DNA of 64,000 nt, taken from contig JBBUCK010000041.1 of the NCBI GenBank assembly GCA_038057845.1, positions 1,042-65,041 of the forward strand, in the 5' to 3' direction. Positions 7,749-50,431 of this stretch are shown piece by piece; the first letter of the stretch is position 1; each line of letters begins with the position of its first letter. This stretch comes from Patescibacteria group bacterium. Lineage in GTDB: Bacteria > Patescibacteriota > Minisyncoccia > Phycocordibacterales > JAGLPS01. The notes beneath the pieces were generated by a model. It was not told where the DNA came from. It worked only from the letters and a program-made list of their open reading frames with translations, and did no database searches. The translations under genes and the position numbers were made by a program.

Positions 7749-8848
7749 ACATTATCTCAATAAGCACAGACAGAAATATATGGCAGGAGACAAGTGCAGT
7801 GCGCGCACGGATGATTGAATACGGACAGCTATTTGATTCATTGCATATTATTGTTTTTTCAAAAAAGGGACACGATTTGCAACTCGTTCAATTGTCCGAC
7901 AATGTGTGGGCGTACCCAACAAACTCCTTTAATCAATGGTTGTATATTTTCGATGCTATTCGTCTCGGCAAACAACTCTTTGCTACAAGCTACAAGCTAC
8001 AAGCTACAAGCTGGCTCGTAACTGCTCAAGATCCCTTTGAAACAGGTTTTTGCGCGTGGATACTATCGCGGCTAATCGGCAGTAAATTAAATATTCAGAT
8101 TCATACTGATTTTTTGAGTCCATACTTTGTTAAGGGAAATGTTTTAAACAGAATCCGAGTTTTTTTAGCAGACTTTCTTTTACCGAAAGCTGATGGAATT
8201 AGAGTGGTATCCGATCGTATAAAGTCCTCTCTGCAAGCTACAAGCTACAAGCTAAAAGCTTCCCCCATTGTTCTGCCGATTTTTGTCGATGTGTTAAGTA
8301 TTGAGAATACTCAAATCACATTAGATTTGAAGGAAAAATATTCTCAATTTTCGCACATAATTCTTATGGCGACTCGGTTTGCCAAAGAAAAAAACATTTC
8401 TCTCGCTATTGACGCCTTCATACAGGTACTAGAGAAGCTACCCCGCGCAGGTCTTATCATTGTTGGTTCTGGACCTGAATGGGATAATTTAAGGCTTAAA
8501 GTAAAAGCATATAAGTTGTCAGAGAGTATTATCTTTGAACCATGGATAGGTTTTGAAACATTGATTTCTTACTATAAAACAACCAATTTACTTTTAAATA
8601 CCTCTTTATATGAAGGATACGGCCTCATTTTTGCTGAAGCAGCCGCATGCAATACTCCAATTGTTTCAACCGATGTTGGCATTGCCTCCGAAGTGGGCGC
8701 TACTATAGCCGACCATTCTGCTTCAAGTGTTGCCCAAAAGATTCTTGATGTCTTGGGCAATCCCAATCCCAGTCGACTACTCTATATTATTTCCAAAGAA
8801 GAGTATCTTTTAGATTATAAAAGCGCTTTATTGGGATTAGCAAGATAA
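7745..8848 (+). CDS. glycosyltransferase family 4 carrying two internal heptanucleotide (GCTACAA)n microsatellites
   Basis: EGYGLIFAEAAACNTPIVSTDVG GT4 motif; repeats at 7982-8012 and 8233-8260. Confidence 0.7.
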   Translation: MNIISISTDRNIWQETSAVRARMIEYGQLFDSLHIIVFSKKGHDLQLVQLSDNVWAYPTNSFNQWLYIFDAIRLGKQLFATSYKLQATSWLVTAQDPFETGFCAWILSRLIGSKLNIQIHTDFLSPYFVKGNVLNRIRVFLADFLLPKADGIRVVSDRIKSSLQATSYKLKASPIVLPIFVDVLSIENTQITLDLKEKYSQFSHIILMATRFAKEKNISLAIDAFIQVLEKLPRAGLIIVGSGPEWDNLRLKVKAYKLSESIIFEPWIGFETLISYYKTTNLLLNTSLYEGYGLIFAEAAACNTPIVSTDVGIASEVGATIADHSASSVAQKILDVLGNPNPSRLLYIISKEEYLLDYKSALLGLAR

Positions 8849-40845: not shown

Positions 40846-43062
40846 TTATTCGCTATTTTTACTCTCGTGTTCCAAATCTGCCATTACCATAAGCTTTGCC
40901 AATTCCTTAAATGTGACGTTTGGCTTCCAGCCGAGTTTATTTTTTGCTTTTGAGTAGTCTCCTAAAAGTATATCAACTTCTGCTGGTCTAAAATATTTCA
41001 GGTCAACTTCAATAATAGTTTTACCTGTCTTTCTATCAATACCTTTTTCATTGAGACCTTTGCCTTTCCAGACAATGTCCATATCAAGATATTTTGCCGT
41101 TTCCTCAATAAATTCCCGAACAGTGTGCGTTTCGTTTGTCGCGAGAATGAAATCATCGGGGTTTTTGTGCTGGAGAATAAGCCACATACCATAGACAAAA
41201 TCTTTCGCGTAACCCCAGTCTCGCTTCGCGTCCAAATTACCCAAGTAGAGTTTCTTCTCCTTGCCTAATTGTATACGTGAAAGCCCTCGAGTTATTTTTC
41301 GTGTAACGAATGTTTCGCCGCGGCGGGGGGAATTATGCACGCGTGCTTTTCCAATTCCACAATGGAATTCTCCCGAAGAAGTTTCTAAATCGTAAAACCA
41401 ACCATCGTACTTCTGGATTTCCAAAATTTTTTTCACTTCAGAAGGCTCTTTCTTGAGATGGTGCGTGTCGCATGCAAAACCACCATGTTGGATTTTTCTT
41501 ATAAATGTACGCGAGATCCCCGTTATGTGCGCCATTTCTCTTTGTGATACTCCAGTGCCCACGAGTTGTCTTATAGATTGTTCCTTGAATACATTATTTG
41601 TGGTGGTGAGAATATTCAGTGAATAAAATATTCTGCCATCGTCTTTTGTCTCTACAGTGAGGTTAATATTTTGTTGTGTGGTTTTGTCGATAAGATACCA
41701 CAATCCCATGGCTAATGTGGGGGAATTCGTCTTGAAGTTCTTGAATTCATAAGTGCAGGGGTTTGCTTTCAAGCCGTCACATACATTATAGCCGCGCAAG
41801 AACGCAAGCATGACATGCGAAGGGGCGTTCAAAATAACTTTTGGCACGCGCTTAGTCTTATCTTTGTTATAGATATCGATACTGCGTAGCCAATTATTGC
41901 CACCAGCTAGTTGTAGCTGTCCTACGATATTTTTCTGATTAAAACCTGAACGGGAAGGATAGTATAGTGTGTGACCGCCAGTAACCTTTTTCCATAACAT
42001 ATCGAAATGTTGTCGTAATAGTGGATCCGAGTTTGTGAACTTAGCATGGACACCGATGCCTTTGGTGGCGTATGTGGCGGAACCGTCACCTACCATCATA
42101 CCCATAAGCTCCGCCTCTTCTTCGGAATTGGGTAATTGGCGACTTTGCGTATCTGGTTTAGGAAGATCAATGGAGTCAATACAGTCTCCGATTGCAATGT
42201 TCCCAGTTTCTTTTTCTTCTCCCCCTTTCATAAATACAACATGACTGGAAGTTGCCATGAATGCACCAGATCGTGCATTGATAAAGCGCGGATGTTTATT
42301 CTCCCTTTCAGTATCGTGCGGATAGGCGGAAGCAAATGTCACATCAACCCATCCCTGTTTGCTCCATACTTGCACCCCCGAAACTTCTTTTGATTGATAA
42401 TGCTTAAGAGATTCGTTGAATGTTACTATTTCTCGAATTGGTTTTATGTTAAATTCATTCGAACCGGTTTCTTTGCAAAACATAGGCATAAAAGATGACA
42501 CTGTCTCGTGATTGAATAAAATTCCGTTTGAAGCAAACATCCCATACGCTTCTCGATAGTTTTTTGTTATCCAATAGGCGTAAAGTTTAGCCACGCCGTA
42601 CGGTGAGCGAGGGTGGAAAGGAGTTTTTTCTGTTAACGGTAATTCAACCGTCTTACCGAACATCTCAGAGGATGAGGCTTGGTAAAACTTAGTTTTAGTT
42701 AGTCCGGTTTCGCGCATTGCGTCCAGAAGGCGAAGTGTACCAAGTCCTGTGACATCCCCAGTGTATTCCGGCATATCAAAGCTAACACGTACATGGCTCT
42801 GCGCACCTAAATGATAGATTTCATTAGGTTTAATTTCACTTAAAATACGGTTAAGATTACTCCCATCAGACAGATCTCCATAATGGAGAAATAATTTGAT
42901 GTTGTTTATATGGGGATCTTTATAGAGATGGTCAATCCTATCAGTATTAAACGTACTTGCTCGTCTGATAATGCCATGAACTTCATATCCTTTTTCAAGA
43001 AGGAGTTCAGCCAAATAAGACCCGTCCTGTCCGGTGATGCCTGTAATAAGAGCTTTTTTCAT
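40846..43062 (-). CDS. gmd: GDP-mannose 4,6-dehydratase interrupted by a ~391-aa intein (precursor 738 aa)
   Basis: N-extein [22 protein letters not shown]...ILFNHE and C-extein [16 protein letters not shown] match the conserved Gmd NHESPRRG region split by an insertion. Confidence 0.85.
41332..42504 (-). mobile_element. intein with LAGLIDADG homing-endonuclease domain inserted in gmd
   Basis: block B ATSSHVV (TxxH); two LAGLIDADG motifs [10 protein letters not shown] and [12 protein letters not shown]; block [25 protein letters not shown] ending HN + Ser(+1); N-terminal boundary uncertain (residue after NHE is Thr; a Cys lies 9 aa downstream). Confidence 0.7.
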
Positions 43063-43170
43063 AAAGTTTATAAAGTCGAAAGTCTATAAAGTCCTTAAAG
43101 CCATAAAGTTCCTGAAGCTCAAAAGCGGTAGTGGTGTACTTTACGAACTTTTAACTTTCAGACTTTTGAC
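43063..43170. repeat. bipartite inverted array: ATAAAGT(C/T) repeats (43063-43115) then GACTTT-type repeats (43135-43170) around a short central spacer, immediately upstream of gmd
   Basis: cataaagtttataaagtcgaaagtctataaagtccttaaagccataaagttcc...ctttacgaacttttaactttcagacttttgacta. Confidence 0.65.
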
Positions 43171-43178
43171 TATTTTTC

Positions 43179-43427
43179 CTACCATTTATTAATTTTAGTA
43201 ACAACTTTTTTCTTAATCGTCAAGTAGGAGTTTGTTGCCGCTTTTTCCATGTTAGGCGAAATAAGACGAAGAATTTCTTTTCCCAAAATTCGGTATTGAC
43301 CGCCAACTTTGTTTGCTCTAATAAGCCCCTTTTTAAGAAAGCGTTTTATAGTGCTCTCGCTTACCTTCAGAAATTGTTGTGTTTCCAAGGAGGTATATAC
43401 AGCATTTGGTTTTATCTCTTGTTCCAT
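43179..43427 (-). CDS. small helix-turn-helix DNA-binding protein, excisionase/MerR-like (HTH_17-type)
   Basis: VYTSLETQQFLKVSESTIKRFLKKGLIRANKVGGQYRI resembles excisionase-family HTH. Confidence 0.5.
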   Translation of the reverse strand: MEQEIKPNAVYTSLETQQFLKVSESTIKRFLKKGLIRANKVGGQYRILGKEILRLISPNMEKAATNSYLTIKKKVVTKINKW

Positions 43428-43578
43428 CCCGTTAGAAGTTTATGTTTATAATAATTTTGCGCAGTGCGTCTGCCGAATAGGCAGTTCCCGTTATGGGCGA
43501 AGCGCTGCGCCCCGAAAGGGATGGAGCTATTCGCTCCTCGCGCTTCGCGTAGTTACTGTTTCGTAAACTTCTAACGGG
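43428..43578. ncRNA. GC-rich, multi-hairpin structured element closed by 15-bp perfect terminal inverted repeats (candidate ncRNA / 5' leader / MITE-like element)
   Basis: cccgttagaagtttA...TAAACTTCTAACGGG outer stem; inner hairpins GUCUGCC-GAAUA-GGCAG, GCGAAGCGC...GCGCUUCGC (9 bp) enclosing CCC-GAAA-GGG and GGAGC-UAUU-CGCUCC; abuts the start codon of the HTH gene. Confidence 0.4.
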
Positions 43579-43770
43579 ATTCCATATGTAGTATCATAAT
43601 AAGGCAAGATAGCAAGAAGTGTCAACAGGCTTCAACACACACCATCTATTTCTGTCAGATTCTATTCGACCAAATGATACTATGTTCAATTTTTCATATT
43701 GCTTGACTAGAGTTGCTACTTTTTTCCAAAATTAATGGGTATCTTTTAATTCGTCTGCTATAATTGCCCA

Positions 43771-45936: not shown

Positions 45937-45945
45937 AGAAGTTTT

Positions 45946-46105
45946 TAGCTTTTAGGGATTAGCTTATAGGGGAAGGTTGTAGTTTTTAGCTTATAGCTTG
46001 TAGAAAGATAGAAAGATAGAAAGAGAAGATTCTCCCGTCCCGAATTCAATGATTCCTAGAATTTTTCCTCCTAAAAGCTAACAGCTATAGGCTATAAGCT
46101 ACGCA
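45946..46105. repeat. inverted arrays of TAGCTT(A/T)TAGG motifs flanking an (AGAAAGAT)n-containing spacer
   Basis: gtttttagcttttagggattagcttataggg...gtttttagcttatagcttgtag | agaaagatagaaagatagaaagag... | cctaaaagctaacagctataggctataagctac. Confidence 0.55.
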
Positions 46106-46108
46106 GAG

Positions 46109-46137
46109 TTGCATTTTTTAGTGATTCATGCTATATT
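46109..46137 (+). promoter_or_regulatory. near-consensus sigma70-type promoter TTGCAT-17-TATATT
   Basis: ttgcat (46109-46114), 17-nt spacer, tatatt (46132-46137). Confidence 0.45.
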
Positions 46138-46144
46138 ATCCACG

Positions 46145-46219
46145 TGTGAGTGCATTAAGCACTAGCGACCAAATAAGAATGTCTGCGTAAGCCCCCTCCA
46201 AAAGAGGGGGTTTGCGTTT
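46145..46219 (+). ncRNA. candidate ~75-nt small RNA: 5' hairpin (AGUGC-AUUAA-GCACU), single-stranded middle, intrinsic terminator
   Basis: promoter immediately upstream; terminator CCCCCTC-caaaa-GAGGGGG + TTTGCGTTTG at 46191-46219. Confidence 0.35.
46191..46219 (+). terminator. rho-independent terminator hairpin
   Basis: 7-bp GC stem, 5-nt loop, U-rich tail. Confidence 0.6.
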
Positions 46220-46327
46220 GTAGAGACTATTTTGTTAAAATCTCTCTATATATAGAGTCGTGTTTAGTCACGACGGGCGGCCGCACTCACATTAAGACAT
46301 TTTTGGAGCTAGCACCGCCCGTCATGA

Positions 46328-47377
46328 GTGGATGTGACCCCTATAGAGATTTCCGAAAACACGCCCCTTAAACTTCTTAATACATTTAAGACGGGTGGCA
46401 ACGCTTGTTATTTTGTTGATGTTTCAACAATTAAACAGTTAATACAGGCAGTTTCTTTTGCACAAAAAAGAAGTTTGCCAATTTTTATCCTAGGTGAAGG
46501 TTCTAATATTCTTATTTCAGATGAAGGTTTTGATGGTCTTGTTATACGTATGAAGATTTCCGGTATTACATTCCAAAATGAAACAGAAGAAAAAATCGAG
46601 GTGAGGGTTGGGGCAGGAGAGCATTGGGATTTTTTTGTGGAGCACATGGTTTCAAAAGGTTTGTATGGAATCGAAAATCTTTCTGGTATTCCTGGAAGTG
46701 TTGGTGCAGCACCAGTTCAGAACATTGGTGCCTATGGTGTTGAAGCAAAAGATTCTATTCTCTTTGTTGATGTGTTTGATATAGAAGATACAAAAATAAA
46801 AAAGATTTCTTCTCCTGATTGTAATTTTTCTTATCGTGATAGTATTTTTAAAACCGAAAAAGGTAAAAAATATATTATTGTATCTGTTACGTTCCTCCTA
46901 AAAAAACACAAAAACCTTTCTACGGATTATCGAGACCTTGCCCTTTATCTTAAAGAAAGAGATATAACACATCCTTCCTTGCAGGACATACGGAATGCAA
47001 TTCTTGAAATCCGTAAGCAAAAACTTCCTTCTCTTGCCGATTACGGCACAGCTGGGTCATTTTTTAAAAATATTATTATTCAAGATAGAGAATTTAAGTT
47101 ACTGAAAGAAAGATTTCCCAAAATACCTTCGTTTCTCGCAGAAGTAGGAAAAGTAAAGATTCCTACTGCATGGGTATTTGATAATATTTGTAATTTAAAA
47201 GGCTTACGAGAAGGCAATGTGGGTGTATATGAAAGACAAGCACTTGTTCTTGTGACGTTTGGGAATGCTACTTCTCTTGAAGTAAAAAACTTATCTGATT
47301 TTATTATTGAAGAAGTAAAAAAGAAAACGGGTTTACTTCTCGAGCGCGAGGTGCAACTCGTTGGAATGTTTGATTAA
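46328..47377 (+). CDS. murB: UDP-N-acetylenolpyruvoylglucosamine reductase
   Basis: LKLLNTFKTGGNACYFVDV...IFILGEGSNILISDEGFDGLVI FAD-binding domain; C-terminal MurB domain. Confidence 0.8.
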   Translation: MDVTPIEISENTPLKLLNTFKTGGNACYFVDVSTIKQLIQAVSFAQKRSLPIFILGEGSNILISDEGFDGLVIRMKISGITFQNETEEKIEVRVGAGEHWDFFVEHMVSKGLYGIENLSGIPGSVGAAPVQNIGAYGVEAKDSILFVDVFDIEDTKIKKISSPDCNFSYRDSIFKTEKGKKYIIVSVTFLLKKHKNLSTDYRDLALYLKERDITHPSLQDIRNAILEIRKQKLPSLADYGTAGSFFKNIIIQDREFKLLKERFPKIPSFLAEVGKVKIPTAWVFDNICNLKGLREGNVGVYERQALVLVTFGNATSLEVKNLSDFIIEEVKKKTGLLLEREVQLVGMFD

Positions 47378-47565
47378 ATATTTTTTTGGAAAATAAAGTT
47401 ATCAACATATTTGTGATATAAAACATTGTGTTGCGCATCTTCCTATTTCATAATTAAGACAAGGTCGTAGGAAATTCTATCCTGAATACAACTGAAGGAT
47501 AAAATTTCAAGATCACGCTCTCCAAGCGTTTAGAAGTAATTTTTATCAATCGTACGATTGATTAC

Positions 47566-47646
47566 AAAATAAAAATGGCAAAGAAAAGAAAAGTTGCTAA
47601 AAAGCGAAAGCCAGCAGCAAAGAGAAAGAAAGCAACTAAGAAGAAG
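47566..47646 (+). CDS. 26-aa highly basic micro-protein MAKKRKVAKKRKPAAKRKKATKKKRR (below ORF-track size cutoff)
   Basis: clean ATG..TAG ORF followed 25 nt later by a perfect intrinsic terminator; in an otherwise 525-nt non-coding gap. Confidence 0.35.
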
Positions 47647-47670
47647 CGAAGATAGTTTTCTCTCCTTGGT

Positions 47671-47703
47671 CTAACGCTTAAACAATCCGCCTTCTCGGCG
47701 GAT
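47671..47703 (+). terminator. rho-independent terminator (12-bp perfect stem AAACAATCCGCC/GGCGGATTGTTT, loop TTCTC, T-tract)
   Basis: seen directly. Confidence 0.7.
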
Positions 47704-47736
47704 TGTTTTTTGCTGTTCCTTTTTCTTTTCTTCCAG

Positions 47737-47902: not shown

Positions 47903-50431
47903 GTGGTACAGTTGTCTATCATGTTTTCTTTTCAGAGCCTTTTTGGCACAAAAGAAGCTCGTGAGCTTAAAGCCCTATATCCCATTGTTGCAAAGGTCAA
48001 CGGTCTTGAACCACAAATGGCAGCTTTTTCTGATGATGGTTTAAAAGCTAAAACCCAAGAATTTAAAAATCGTTTAAACCAAGGCGAAATACTCGACAGT
48101 ATTTTGCCAGAAGCATTTGCTGTAGTCCGCGAGGCTTCTAAACGCACACTTGGCGAACGTCACTTTGATGTCCAACTTCTTGGAGGAATGGTTCTTCATC
48201 AAGGAGGTATTGCTGAAATGAAAACGGGAGAAGGGAAGACTCTTGTGGCAACGTTGCCTACGTATCTTAATGCTTTAACAGGGAAAGGAGTTCATGTTGT
48301 TACTGTTAACGATTATCTTTCTCGTCGTGACGCAGTATGGATGGGACAAATTTACTCTTCCCTGGGGCTTTCTGTTGGAGTAATTAATCACGAAACATCT
48401 TATCTCTACGACAAAACTCATACAGAAAAAGATAAGGAGCGTGACCAAGTTGGGTCATTTAAGGTTGTGTATGATTTTTTGAGAGAATGCAATCGTCAGG
48501 AAGCGTATGCTGCGGATATTACGTATGGAACAAATAATGAATTCGGCTTTGATTATCTTCGCGACAATCTTGAAGTTGACGCAAAACGTTTGCGACAAAG
48601 GGAATATCGCTATGCGATAGTTGACGAAATAGACTCTATTCTGATTGATGAAGCGCGTACTCCTTTGATTATCTCTGCGCCAACCGTTGATTCAGAGAAT
48701 TTGTATCATACGTTCGCAAAAATTGGCCGTGAACTGAAAGAAGGAGAAGATTATGAGGTTGACGAAAAACTTAAGGCGATTACATTAACTGATGCTGGTA
48801 TTTCACATGCAGAAAAGATACTTGGCATAGAAAACATTTATACAGAAAAAGGGGTCAAATATGTTCATCACCTCGAGCTTTCTGTGAGAGCAAAAGCACT
48901 TTTTCATAATAATAAAGAATATGTCATTCGAGATGGAGAGGTTGTCATTGTTGATGAATTTACTGGGCGCTTACAGCCTGGAAGACGTTGGTCTGAAGGC
49001 TTGCATCAAGCGATTGAGGCCAAAGAGGGTGTAGAAATACAGAAAGAATCACGTACCTTTGCTTCTATTACCTTTCAAAATTATTTCCGAATGTACAAAA
49101 AACTTTCGGGAATGACTGGTACCGCGCTCACGTCAGCTGAAGAGTTTTATAAAGTTTATGGTCTACCTGTAGTGTCCATTCCGACAAATAAACCTATCGC
49201 TCGAAAAGACCACGATGATTTTATTTTCCAAACTGAAAAGGGAAAGTTTAAGGCGGTAGCGCGTAAAATAAAAGAACTCAACGCTAAAAATCAACCGGTT
49301 CTTATTGGCACAGTTTCAATTGAAAAAAATGAATTACTTTCTGAATATCTGAAACGTGAAGGCGTTTCTCATGAGGTTCTTAATGCCAAAAATAATGAAC
49401 GTGAAGGTGAAATCATTGCCCAAGCGGGCCGCAGGGGCGCGGTAACAATTGCCACGAACATGGCTGGTCGTGGCGTTGACATCAAGCTTGGAGGAAATCC
49501 GGCAACGGAAGAAGAGCGCGCCGAAGTAAGAACCGTCGGTGGACTTTTTGTCATTGGCACTGAACGACATGAAGCTCGTCGTATCGATAACCAGCTTCGC
49601 GGGCGGTCCGGACGACAGGGAGATTCCGGCGAAACGCAGTTTTTTGTTTCTTTAGAAGACTCGCTTATGCGTGTTTTTGCTTCTGACAACATCAAACAAA
49701 TGATGGGGAAATTTGGTATTCCGGAAGATGAGCCAATCCAAAACGGGCTTATTACCCGTTCGCTTGAAGCCGCGCAGAGAAAAATCGAAGGGTTTAATTT
49801 TGATGCCCGAAAGCACATTCTTGAATTTGATGACGTGTTGAATTATCAACGCACTATCATTTACGGTCGCCGTCGGGGAATTCTCGCAGGGGGTGTTTCG
49901 TCAATCGATGACTATCTGCAATCACTCAATGTTGTTGCCACTGACGAACAAAAGGCGGTTATTGAAGAGAAAAGAAAAGAGCTTTCCGATGAACACTTTA
50001 CCTACATGCTTCGCGCGCTTATCTTGCAAGCCATTGATACATTCTGGGTTGACCACCTTGAAATGATGGATTATCTGCGTGGAAGCGTTAATCTTCGCGC
50101 GTACGGCCAAAGAGATCCTTTGGTTGAGTACAAAAGGGAAGGTCTTCAACTTTTTAAGCAGATGGAAGCTTCAGTGAAAGAGCAAGTGCTTCATTTACTT
50201 CCTAATCTTAAAAAAGAAGCAATGACTAATGCTTTACCACAGGAAATGGAGCAAGTTTCTCGTCAGGCCAATTTAATTCTTGGTTCTGAAAGCACAAAGG
50301 CTGTTCCTGCACAGTTCAAAGACACAGGAAGAAATGACCCATGTCCGTGCGGAGCGATTAATCCAGAAACTGGTCAAGTGTATAAATATAAGAAATGTGG
50401 CCTAATCAATGCCCCACATCACAGGAAGTAA
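47903..50431 (+). CDS. secA: preprotein translocase ATPase SecA (with C-terminal Zn-finger CPCG...KCG)
   Basis: MAGRGVDIKLGG, DEIDSILIDEARTPLIIS, full-length collinear SecA. Confidence 0.95.
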   Translation: MVQLSIMFSFQSLFGTKEARELKALYPIVAKVNGLEPQMAAFSDDGLKAKTQEFKNRLNQGEILDSILPEAFAVVREASKRTLGERHFDVQLLGGMVLHQGGIAEMKTGEGKTLVATLPTYLNALTGKGVHVVTVNDYLSRRDAVWMGQIYSSLGLSVGVINHETSYLYDKTHTEKDKERDQVGSFKVVYDFLRECNRQEAYAADITYGTNNEFGFDYLRDNLEVDAKRLRQREYRYAIVDEIDSILIDEARTPLIISAPTVDSENLYHTFAKIGRELKEGEDYEVDEKLKAITLTDAGISHAEKILGIENIYTEKGVKYVHHLELSVRAKALFHNNKEYVIRDGEVVIVDEFTGRLQPGRRWSEGLHQAIEAKEGVEIQKESRTFASITFQNYFRMYKKLSGMTGTALTSAEEFYKVYGLPVVSIPTNKPIARKDHDDFIFQTEKGKFKAVARKIKELNAKNQPVLIGTVSIEKNELLSEYLKREGVSHEVLNAKNNEREGEIIAQAGRRGAVTIATNMAGRGVDIKLGGNPATEEERAEVRTVGGLFVIGTERHEARRIDNQLRGRSGRQGDSGETQFFVSLEDSLMRVFASDNIKQMMGKFGIPEDEPIQNGLITRSLEAAQRKIEGFNFDARKHILEFDDVLNYQRTIIYGRRRGILAGGVSSIDDYLQSLNVVATDEQKAVIEEKRKELSDEHFTYMLRALILQAIDTFWVDHLEMMDYLRGSVNLRAYGQRDPLVEYKREGLQLFKQMEASVKEQVLHLLPNLKKEAMTNALPQEMEQVSRQANLILGSESTKAVPAQFKDTGRNDPCPCGAINPETGQVYKYKKCGLINAPHHRK

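Follow-up and report, generated by a model that had tools for sequence, protein, structure and literature searches.

The stretch examined here (the window) is 64,000 nt of a contig from the metagenome-assembled genome (MAG) of a Patescibacteria/Paceibacteria organism, a bacterium of the Candidate Phyla Radiation (CPR), and the question it raises is whether a short unit in front of the peptidoglycan-precursor gene murB, bounded by a promoter and an intrinsic terminator, is a small RNA (sRNA) gene in its own right or the first part of the murB leader. The original prediction had named both possibilities. According to the sequence comparisons reported below, this unit (Module 1) and a long leader hairpin at the murB start (Module 2) are both conserved and structured, form separate transcription units in relatives, and share a complementarity that is itself conserved and covarying. 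We regard it as very probable that Module 1 is a real, conserved sRNA gene whose product pairs with the leader hairpin and, for the combined reading, as likely that an independent gene of about 75 nt encodes an antisense-type regulator of this hairpin. We infer that both RNAs are transcribed as drawn in Table 1 and that their pairing regulates murB; the predicted control of murB through the hairpin we hold to be somewhat more probable than its absence.

The promoter of Module 1, TTGCAT-17-TATATT at 46109-46137, is present as originally described, and a TG that had gone unmentioned makes the second element an extended -10. All 41 distinct loci examined keep the promoter in its place, as TTGAC(T/A) or TTGCA(T/A) followed after 16-17 nt by TAnnnT, with the -10 box ending 6-8 nt before GTGAGTGC and the TG extension retained in 37 of them. 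The designation as near-consensus needs one qualification, as the -35 of the window agrees with TTGACA at only three of six positions. A consensus promoter scan missed the site for this reason; the consensus scan did list the terminator. The G+C core of the terminator stem, CCCCCUC/GAGGGGG, occupies 46192-46198 and 46204-46210, beginning 1 nt from where it had been placed, and the stem extends to 13-14 bp (CGUAAGCCCCCUC/GAGGGGGUUUGCG, 46186-46216) before UUUGUA, the tail being interrupted (UUUGCGUUUG). Transcription would start at or just before GUGAGUGC, and the RNA would end at this intrinsic terminator. The 79-nt RNA folded at -33.3 kcal/mol compared with -17.0 ± 2.9 kcal/mol for shuffled sequences (z = -5.5, 0/200), and the covariance model of the sRNA (R2) scored 62.4 bits in the window (E = 5e-13, 46142-46226, + strand) compared with 15.5 bits on the - strand.

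The remaining features of the unit were also examined across homologues. The terminator stem showed compensatory changes at 6 of 10 consensus pairs (38 homologues). The 5' hairpin (HP1) reads AGUGC-AUUAA-GCACU in the window, as had been noted; all 39 homologues examined were predicted to form a hairpin there, built from unrelated sequence. In the predicted folds, the AAUGUCU tract (block b) was unpaired in nearly all homologues, and the segment at the 5' end (block a) was partly paired with the 3' arm of HP1. No open reading frame (ORF) of at least 30 aa overlaps the unit, in agreement with the initial reading. A conserved mini-ORF, MSA*, was considered and rejected, as its sole AUG (AUG UCU GCG UAA) becomes AUA or AUG UAA in homologues. 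With a conserved promoter, an intrinsic terminator, and no conserved reading frame, the unit has the features of an independent bacterial sRNA gene.

Relatives of the locus were gathered in two ways. Most came from a metagenome scan with a DNA pattern for the leader loop, in which GCACTCA and TTGGAGCTAGC were fixed; it returned at least 120 loci, and the homologue counts given for both modules derive mostly from the matches listed. A second set was anchored on MurB and chosen without any RNA pattern (including L002, L004, L006, L131, L133, L138, and L139). The murB gene itself was assigned by the Pfam domains FAD_binding_4 and MurB_C, and its product in the window is 100% identical to a public 347-aa protein (P0001) from a Patescibacteria group bacterium MAG. 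A gene for a Wzy_C-TPR membrane protein lies upstream of it and secA lies further downstream, and the order wzy, long spacer, murB, secA is kept in L002, L004, and L006-8 (MurB relatives, 78%, 56%, and 53% identity), where two blocks of the wzy-murB spacer are conserved, namely Module 1 and Module 2.

Among the matches listed, the covariance model recognized about 54 genuine Module 2 loci, and of 56 distinct loci with Module 2, a sequence profile (nhmmer) detected Module 1 in 43; the number of distinct metagenomic relatives that carry Module 1 exceeds 40. The loci chosen without an RNA pattern gave Module 1 covariance-model matches of 40-72 bits. Nine MurB-anchored lineages carry Module 2 (the window, L002, L004, L006, L131, L133, L136, L138, and L139), and a Module 1 match was obtained in seven of them (not in L136), the window carrying the flagged unit itself. 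Conservation of the 75-nt segment upstream of murB, which had been proposed as a check, was therefore seen in both sets, and this conservation supports the predicted discrete sRNA of about 75 nt with its own promoter and terminator. Neither module was found in the MurB-anchored loci L001, L129, L134, and L135, in which wzy abuts murB or the spacer is short. Covariance models identified only one copy of each module in the 64-kb window. A MurB search of genome contigs returned a single distant locus (L001) without the element, and in viral contigs the loop pattern matched once, probably by chance, and the sRNA matched nowhere.

The stem that had been noticed at the murB start (GACGGGCGG at 46272-46280 and CCGCCCGUC at 46315-46323) proved to be part of a longer stem (stem S) of 22-24 bp that closes a conserved loop, GCACUCAC..AGACAUU..UUGGAGCUAGC; its role as the conserved, covarying pairing partner of the sRNA had been missed. 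In the window, Module 2 scored 72.2 bits with its covariance model (R1, E about 1e-15) and had a fold energy of -37.5 kcal/mol (z = -5.1). The 54 covariance-model matches scored 62-96 bits on the motif strand compared with 25-41 bits on the reverse strand, and chance matches to the pattern alone received no covariance-model score. Across 49 homologues, 93.8% of stem cells were paired, compared with 70% for shuffled partners and 39-48% for slid controls; compensatory changes were observed in 21 of 22 pairs, with a covariation score of 0.726 compared with 0.257 for shuffles. Inside the loop, RNAalifold paired the first conserved segment with the last (a' with d'), for which L138 provides one compensatory change (A:U to U:A).

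In most loci a TATAAT, TACAAT, or TATACT box lies 7-11 nt before the first base of stem S, which would place the stem at the 5' end of its own transcript. TTGCGT in the terminator tail of Module 1 often serves as the -35 element of this second promoter. The tail at 46212-46217 corresponds to this element in many relatives, and in L009, L051, L056, L105, L106, and L110 the arrangement TTGCGT-16/17-TACAAT/TATAAT means that termination of the sRNA and initiation of the next RNA share DNA. In the closest relative, L002, TTGTTA-16-TATAAT precedes the hairpin.

When the two modules were compared, GUGAGUGC at the 5' end of the sRNA proved complementary to GCACUCAC on the 5' side of the leader loop, and the single-stranded CCAAA..AAUGUCU of the sRNA to AGACAUU..UUUGG in the apical part of the loop. 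In the window, a:a' is a 9-nt perfect inverted repeat (I16, UGUGAGUGC and GCACUCACA), and b:b' forms a second inverted repeat (I17, AAGAAUGUCU and AGACAUUUUU). The block a duplex had an energy of -17.0 kcal/mol compared with -5.4 ± 2.7 kcal/mol for shuffles, and the duplex of the 3' tract (block b together with CCAAA:UUUGG and CUAGC:GCUAG) had -19.1 kcal/mol compared with -7.5 ± 2.4 kcal/mol (0/1000). Apart from the leader loop, the 64-kb window contains no bipartite a'+b' site, the chance expectation being 0.15 per window; searches with a single seed were non-specific, and only the bipartite site was unique. A whole-window target scan with RNAduplex was uninformative, as long internal loops inflate the scores (background mean -17 kcal/mol), and RNAcofold returned two separate folds, the loop-to-tail pairing being beyond what that program represents.

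The pairing was also followed through the relatives. The 17 core pairs, scored over 39 distinct sRNA/loop combinations, were standard in 96.2% of cells, compared with 22-54% in slid controls. Compensatory changes occurred in six of the nine pairs of the b:b' helix (G:C to A:U via G:U; CU:AG to AA:UU), and 99.4% of a:a' cells were paired, with wobble-compatible changes and one compensatory A:U; double changes were found in seven intermolecular pairs in total. Matched variants included AAUGUCU:AGACAUU, AAUAUCU:AGAUAUU, and AAUGUAA:UUACAUU. In L063, AAUGUCU has disappeared from the sRNA together with AGACAUU from the loop, and in L083 both are shortened. Cognate duplexes were more stable than non-cognate ones (-17.3 compared with -15.4 kcal/mol, permutation p < 1e-4). 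The blocks follow the order a, hairpin loop, d, c, b in the sRNA and a', b', c', d' in the leader loop, so that the sRNA corresponds to the antisense of the upper part of the leader hairpin in circularly permuted order. It is not a cis-encoded antisense RNA, as sRNA and target are encoded by separate stretches of DNA, which in most loci share a strand.

The variation just described also bears on whether the conserved blocks might be DNA-level protein sites, promoter elements, or chance similarity. Blocks a and a' do form an inverted repeat in the DNA, a DnaA-box-like sequence (TTATCCACG) lies over the -10/+1 region of the sRNA promoter, and such boxes are enriched upstream in relatives (7/41 compared with 3% expected). 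However, the changes obey RNA rules, with G:U intermediates and strand-specific scores (62-96 compared with 25-41 bits), the stems covary heavily without keeping their sequence, the terminator and the promoter have a defined orientation, and the bipartite site has the low chance expectation already mentioned. We consider an explanation at the DNA level very improbable.

Whether Module 1 belongs to the murB transcript was judged from the arrangement of the two modules. The spacing between sRNA and leader ranges from 42 nt to about 3 kb across loci; the sRNA unit is on the strand opposite Module 2 in L111 and L063, where the genes are divergent, and 0.2-3 kb from it in L047, L028, L057, L077, L120, and L060. 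Given the opposite strand or the kilobase distance in these loci, the sRNA is not generally part of the murB leader transcript. A cis-acting attenuator, in which a single long murB leader would begin with promoter, "sRNA", and terminator, the terminator would be the regulated step, and the a:a' and b:b' complementarities would be long-range contacts within one molecule, would fit the window itself in some respects, as the second promoter is unconvincing there (TATATA, no -35), the two elements stand in tandem 35 nt apart, and the interrupted tail of the terminator makes read-through plausible. It is at odds with the loci just listed (L111 and L063 for the strand; L028, L057, L077, L120, and L060 for the distance) and with the good -10 box directly before the hairpin in most relatives; moreover, a, b, a', and b' follow one another without nesting and so offer no simple alternative hairpin to the terminator, and no upstream competitor of the terminator stem was found. 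The attenuator-type leader that had been offered as one of two alternatives is accordingly left without support in the relatives, though it may still apply to the window, where the second promoter is weak; overall we rate it as quite improbable. The other alternative, a trans-acting sRNA, gained support from the divergent loci, from distances of 190-3000 nt, and from the conserved, covarying complementarity.

For a trans-acting sRNA, the link to murB lies in the leader hairpin. Both candidate GTG starts of murB (46328 and 46334) are inside the 3' arm of stem S, and in about 11-13 loci, including the window, the murB start falls within this arm or no more than 5 nt after it; a Shine-Dalgarno (SD) sequence, GGGGG/GGGGA, is contained in the arm in L009, L051, and L035. 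A U-run follows the stem in L131, L031, L111, and L067, with the murB start 13-60 nt further on; the tightest of these cases leave no room for a promoter before murB. Pairing would presumably alter murB expression, as the base of the stem holds the start codon or the SD, or precedes a U-run. In L133, L083, L086, and L099, a separate small G+C hairpin with a U-run directly follows Module 2, and in L133 this second hairpin (2957-2985) is only about 15 nt before the murB ATG; this suggests an attenuator-type platform in some lineages.

Several observations weigh against the reading of an sRNA that pairs with the hairpin and controls murB through it. The murB gene is absent in roughly half of the loci (including L013, L021, L036, L064, L066, L070, and L083), where the RNA pair is equally well conserved; the element is not strictly murB-specific, a point that had also gone unmentioned. 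The sRNA pairs with the loop only and not with the stem arms, which offers no evident way to open or stabilize a 22-bp stem. The leader's own promoter is poor in the window, where read-through from the sRNA promoter into murB is possible for that reason. The invariance of a' and d' is partly a matter of ascertainment, as these segments were fixed in the search pattern, and the case for a:a' depends on its conservation and wobble-type variation rather than on double changes; GCACUCAC and GGAGCU are nevertheless retained in the loci chosen without a pattern. Finally, some lineages (L131, L013 type) show only weak d:d' pairing or none.

As the pair persists in loci without murB, control of murB cannot be its only role, and the pair may have a role beyond this gene. 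The two RNAs might instead form a stand-alone system, with the sRNA and a sponge or decoy, or as a bimolecular protein-binding RNA, the overlap with murB being a secondary effect of genome compaction. The murB-less loci agree with this in that the hairpin there is preceded by a -10 box of its own and ends in a U-run or in an additional small terminator (L013 type, L083), while further downstream come a tiny Lys/Arg-rich ORF and then secA, with a separate extended -10 placed about 9 nt ahead of its ATG; in addition, the loop segment GGAGCUAGC is kept in pattern-free loci without a consistently complementary sRNA segment. By contrast, the murB start or SD lies in the stem base, or murB follows the stem and U-run, in more than 10 independent lineages, a layout that would be hard to keep unless expression through the hairpin were tolerated or used and that disfavors a stand-alone system; the Rfam scans also indicated no protein partner and no known ribonucleoprotein family. 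We regard such a system as unlikely.

We considered how an sRNA acting on the murB leader hairpin could function. The free b/c tail of the sRNA would first contact the apical leader loop, and a partner swap would follow, in which the a:d and a':d' pairings are exchanged for a:a' and d:d'. For the murB message, the outcome would be a change in translation initiation, in transcriptional read-through, in RNase processing, or in several of these. Pairing in the loop could hinder closure of the stem and so activate murB, or might just as well give rise to a substrate for RNase III or stabilize the closed form; as to the sign of control, we lean slightly toward activation via interference with the stem. 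Given the length of the complementarity, no chaperone should be needed, and chaperone-independent action is the most likely reading. A design in which the sRNA-binding loop stays the same while the output attached to it varies (start-codon occlusion, stem with U-run, or separate terminator) would, by analogy, resemble the modularity of RNA-sensing leaders.

Comparison with databases and known systems placed the pair in a familiar category with an unusual architecture. The Rfam scan that had been suggested as a check gave no match to Rfam 15 at the gathering threshold in the whole window or in 16 related loci, and permissive searches of the window and 24 related loci gave only sub-threshold matches to terminators or generic hairpins (miRNA precursors), with no family recurring. 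A search for tRNA and transfer-messenger RNA (tmRNA) found none. Split or permuted tmRNA, signal recognition particle (SRP) RNA, 6S RNA, RNase P, C/D-box-like RNA, and ribozymes were dropped on inspection, with no diagnostic motifs and no Rfam support. A type I toxin-antitoxin system was rejected, as there is no conserved small toxin ORF in or beside the hairpin and the downstream gene is murB. Full-text literature searches returned no description of such an element and no characterized regulatory sRNAs in Patescibacteria. The pair is probably a previously undescribed RNA regulator, and we place it as a new family within the known kind of base-pairing regulatory sRNA and mRNA leader.

Antisense-leader pairs of plasmids and transposons include CopA-CopT of R1 and RNA-OUT/RNA-IN of IS10. 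Like the CopA-CopT type, the present sRNA is short and highly structured, has more than 20 nt of complementarity to a leader hairpin loop, should require no short seed of the chaperone-dependent type, and likely begins pairing at an exposed single strand and spreads by strand exchange (the a:d, a':d' swap). Unlike that type, it is not encoded on the strand opposite its target but by a gene of its own, which in most cases stands upstream in tandem and in others is divergent or kilobases distant; its complementarity falls into separate blocks in circularly permuted order (a, d c b versus a' b' c' d'); and the pair is chromosomal, with a housekeeping gene as the controlled gene in the reading we prefer. 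In DsrA/RprA-rpoS, GlmZ-glmS, and VR-RNA-colA, sRNAs act on 5' untranslated region hairpins that mask the ribosome-binding site, and these systems depend on Hfq, RapZ, or specific RNases. The resemblance to the DsrA-rpoS class lies in a trans-encoded sRNA and in the type of target, a long 5'-leader stem with the SD or start codon in its 3' arm, and the resemblance to GlmZ-glmS lies in the supply of amino-sugar or cell-wall precursors. The sRNAs of the DsrA-rpoS class pair with the inhibitory stem arm, whereas here pairing is confined to the loop, and there is no sequence or Rfam relationship. Transcription attenuation by antisense RNA is known from pT181 and pIP501/pAMbeta1, and the T-box is an RNA-sensing leader. 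As in pT181, pIP501, and the T-box, the fate of the leader is proposed to depend on the binding of another RNA, and as in RNA-sensing leaders, the expression platform varies among relatives while the RNA-binding loop is constant. In contrast to pT181 and pIP501, no terminator/antiterminator alternative was found, and in contrast to T-box and cis-antisense systems, the ligand RNA is a dedicated sRNA and not a tRNA or a cis-antisense RNA, and no T-box match was obtained in Rfam.

A more far-reaching possibility, to which we give only a small chance, is a dedicated two-RNA device of Paceibacteria in which the permuted antisense partners refold by partner swap into a four-way-junction complex and which is kept even without an attached gene. 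If true, this would represent a new RNA-sensing leader with a dedicated sRNA ligand and interchangeable terminator or start-codon platforms or, alternatively, a bimolecular RNA with its own cellular role; the DnaA-box-like promoter sites might connect it to DnaA and the cell cycle. CPR/Patescibacteria make up a large share of bacterial diversity and have very small genomes, and a conserved module co-evolving across many Paceibacteria at the start of a peptidoglycan-precursor gene would offer a first handle on their post-transcriptional control. The system is testable without culturing, as both RNAs total less than 170 nt, the compensatory-mutation predictions are explicit, and natural matched and mismatched pairs exist. 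The permuted-antisense layout, with the seed exposed as a tail and not as a loop, is an unusual natural design for RNA-RNA recognition.

Table 1 Features of the sRNA unit, the leader hairpin, and murB in the window (RNA features are predicted).
Feature	Position	Strand	Basis or remark
sRNA -35 element, TTGCAT	46109..46114	+	Read from the sequence; position kept in relatives
sRNA extended -10 element, TGcTATATT	46129..46137	+	TATATT 46132-46137, TG 46129-46130; 17-nt spacer from -35
Predicted sRNA transcript (Module 1), about 75-79 nt	46144..46222	+	Covariance model, fold z-score
Block a, sRNA 5'-end seed UGUGAGUGC	46145..46153	+	Complementary to 46283-46291
5' hairpin HP1, AGUGC-AUUAA-GCACU	46149..46163	+	Partly masks block a
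Single-stranded antisense tract: d CUAGC, c CCAAA, b AAGAAUGUCU	46162..46184	+	Complementary to loop 46295-46313
Block b, AAGAAUGUCU	46175-46184	+	Inverted repeat with 46295-46304
Intrinsic terminator	46186..46222	+	Stem 46186-46198/46204-46216, loop CAAAA, U-rich tail
Possible weak -10 for the murB leader, TATATA	46247..46252	+	Doubtful in the window, no -35
Module 2, long leader hairpin	46257..46338	+	Stem S 46257-46280/46315-46338, 34-nt loop
Loop target site a', GCACUCACA	46283-46291	+	
Loop target site b', AGACAUUUUU	46295-46304	+	
Loop target site c', UUUGG	46302-46306	+	
Loop target site d', GGAGCUAGC	46305-46313	+	
murB coding sequence	46334..47377	+	GTG start 46334, alternative GTG 46328; Pfam domains

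The DnaA-box-like sequence at the sRNA promoter of the window (46136-46144) lies between -10 and +1, and in relatives comparable sites (TTATCCAC(A/G)) were found upstream of the -35 element in L034, L009, L051, L105, L081, and L039, at about -44 to -62 from the RNA start and always on the + strand. For the seven sites at 41 distinct sRNA promoters, the expectation of about 3% corresponds to a binomial p of ~2e-4, the lineages being not fully independent. A replication origin at the locus was unsupported, with 28 DnaA-box-like sites compared with 16.8 expected in the window and no cluster in the 43.1-43.8 kb spacer.

Upstream of the sRNA promoter, the spacer from the wzy stop codon (45937-46108) is filled with short TAG-rich repeats (TAGCTTATAGC and variants) and imperfect inverted repeats. 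A miniature inverted-repeat transposable element (MITE) or large hairpin in this interval was rejected, as it folds like shuffled sequences (z = -0.09). The same 11-mer family occurs as tandem 7-mers within an ORF near 8 kb (7982-8006 and 8237-8254), with nine matches compared with 0.9 expected, and a similar TAG-rich stretch follows the wzy gene of L001. In L002, an insertion of about 450 bp (421-877) separates a small upstream ORF from the sRNA promoter. With inverted repeats at its ends (ctgaattcgcactctaattgcaac ... gttgcaattag..gagtgcgaattcag) and direct repeats inside, it is probably a MITE or a remnant of an insertion sequence.

Downstream of murB, a tiny, extremely basic ORF (MAKKRKVAKKRKPAAKRKKATKKKRR, 47575-47655, + strand) is followed by a strong terminator (47680-47708). 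Such an ORF is conserved between Module 2 or murB and secA (L021, L066, L064, L018), with a TTATCCACA-like box upstream of it (in the window TTATCAACA, 47399-47407). The secA promoter region of the window (47904-47923) shows an extended -10, TGgTACAGT, 8-9 nt before the probable ATG at 47921, and the corresponding promoter in L013, L021, L066, and L064 is TGTGCTAAAAT; the arrangement after murB in the window is the same as in loci without murB. The secA mRNA is probably leaderless or nearly so, the listed GTG start at 47903 probably being too far upstream.

Elsewhere in the window, gene orientation switches from the minus strand (22.4 to 43.1 kb) to the plus strand (from 43.8 kb) across a 709-nt spacer (43063-43770), which coincides with the minimum of the cumulative GC skew; no DnaA-box cluster was found in this spacer. 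A 738-aa ORF (40846-43062, - strand) matches GDP-mannose 4,6-dehydratase in two separated stretches; at roughly double the normal length, it may contain a large insertion such as an intein or represent a fusion.

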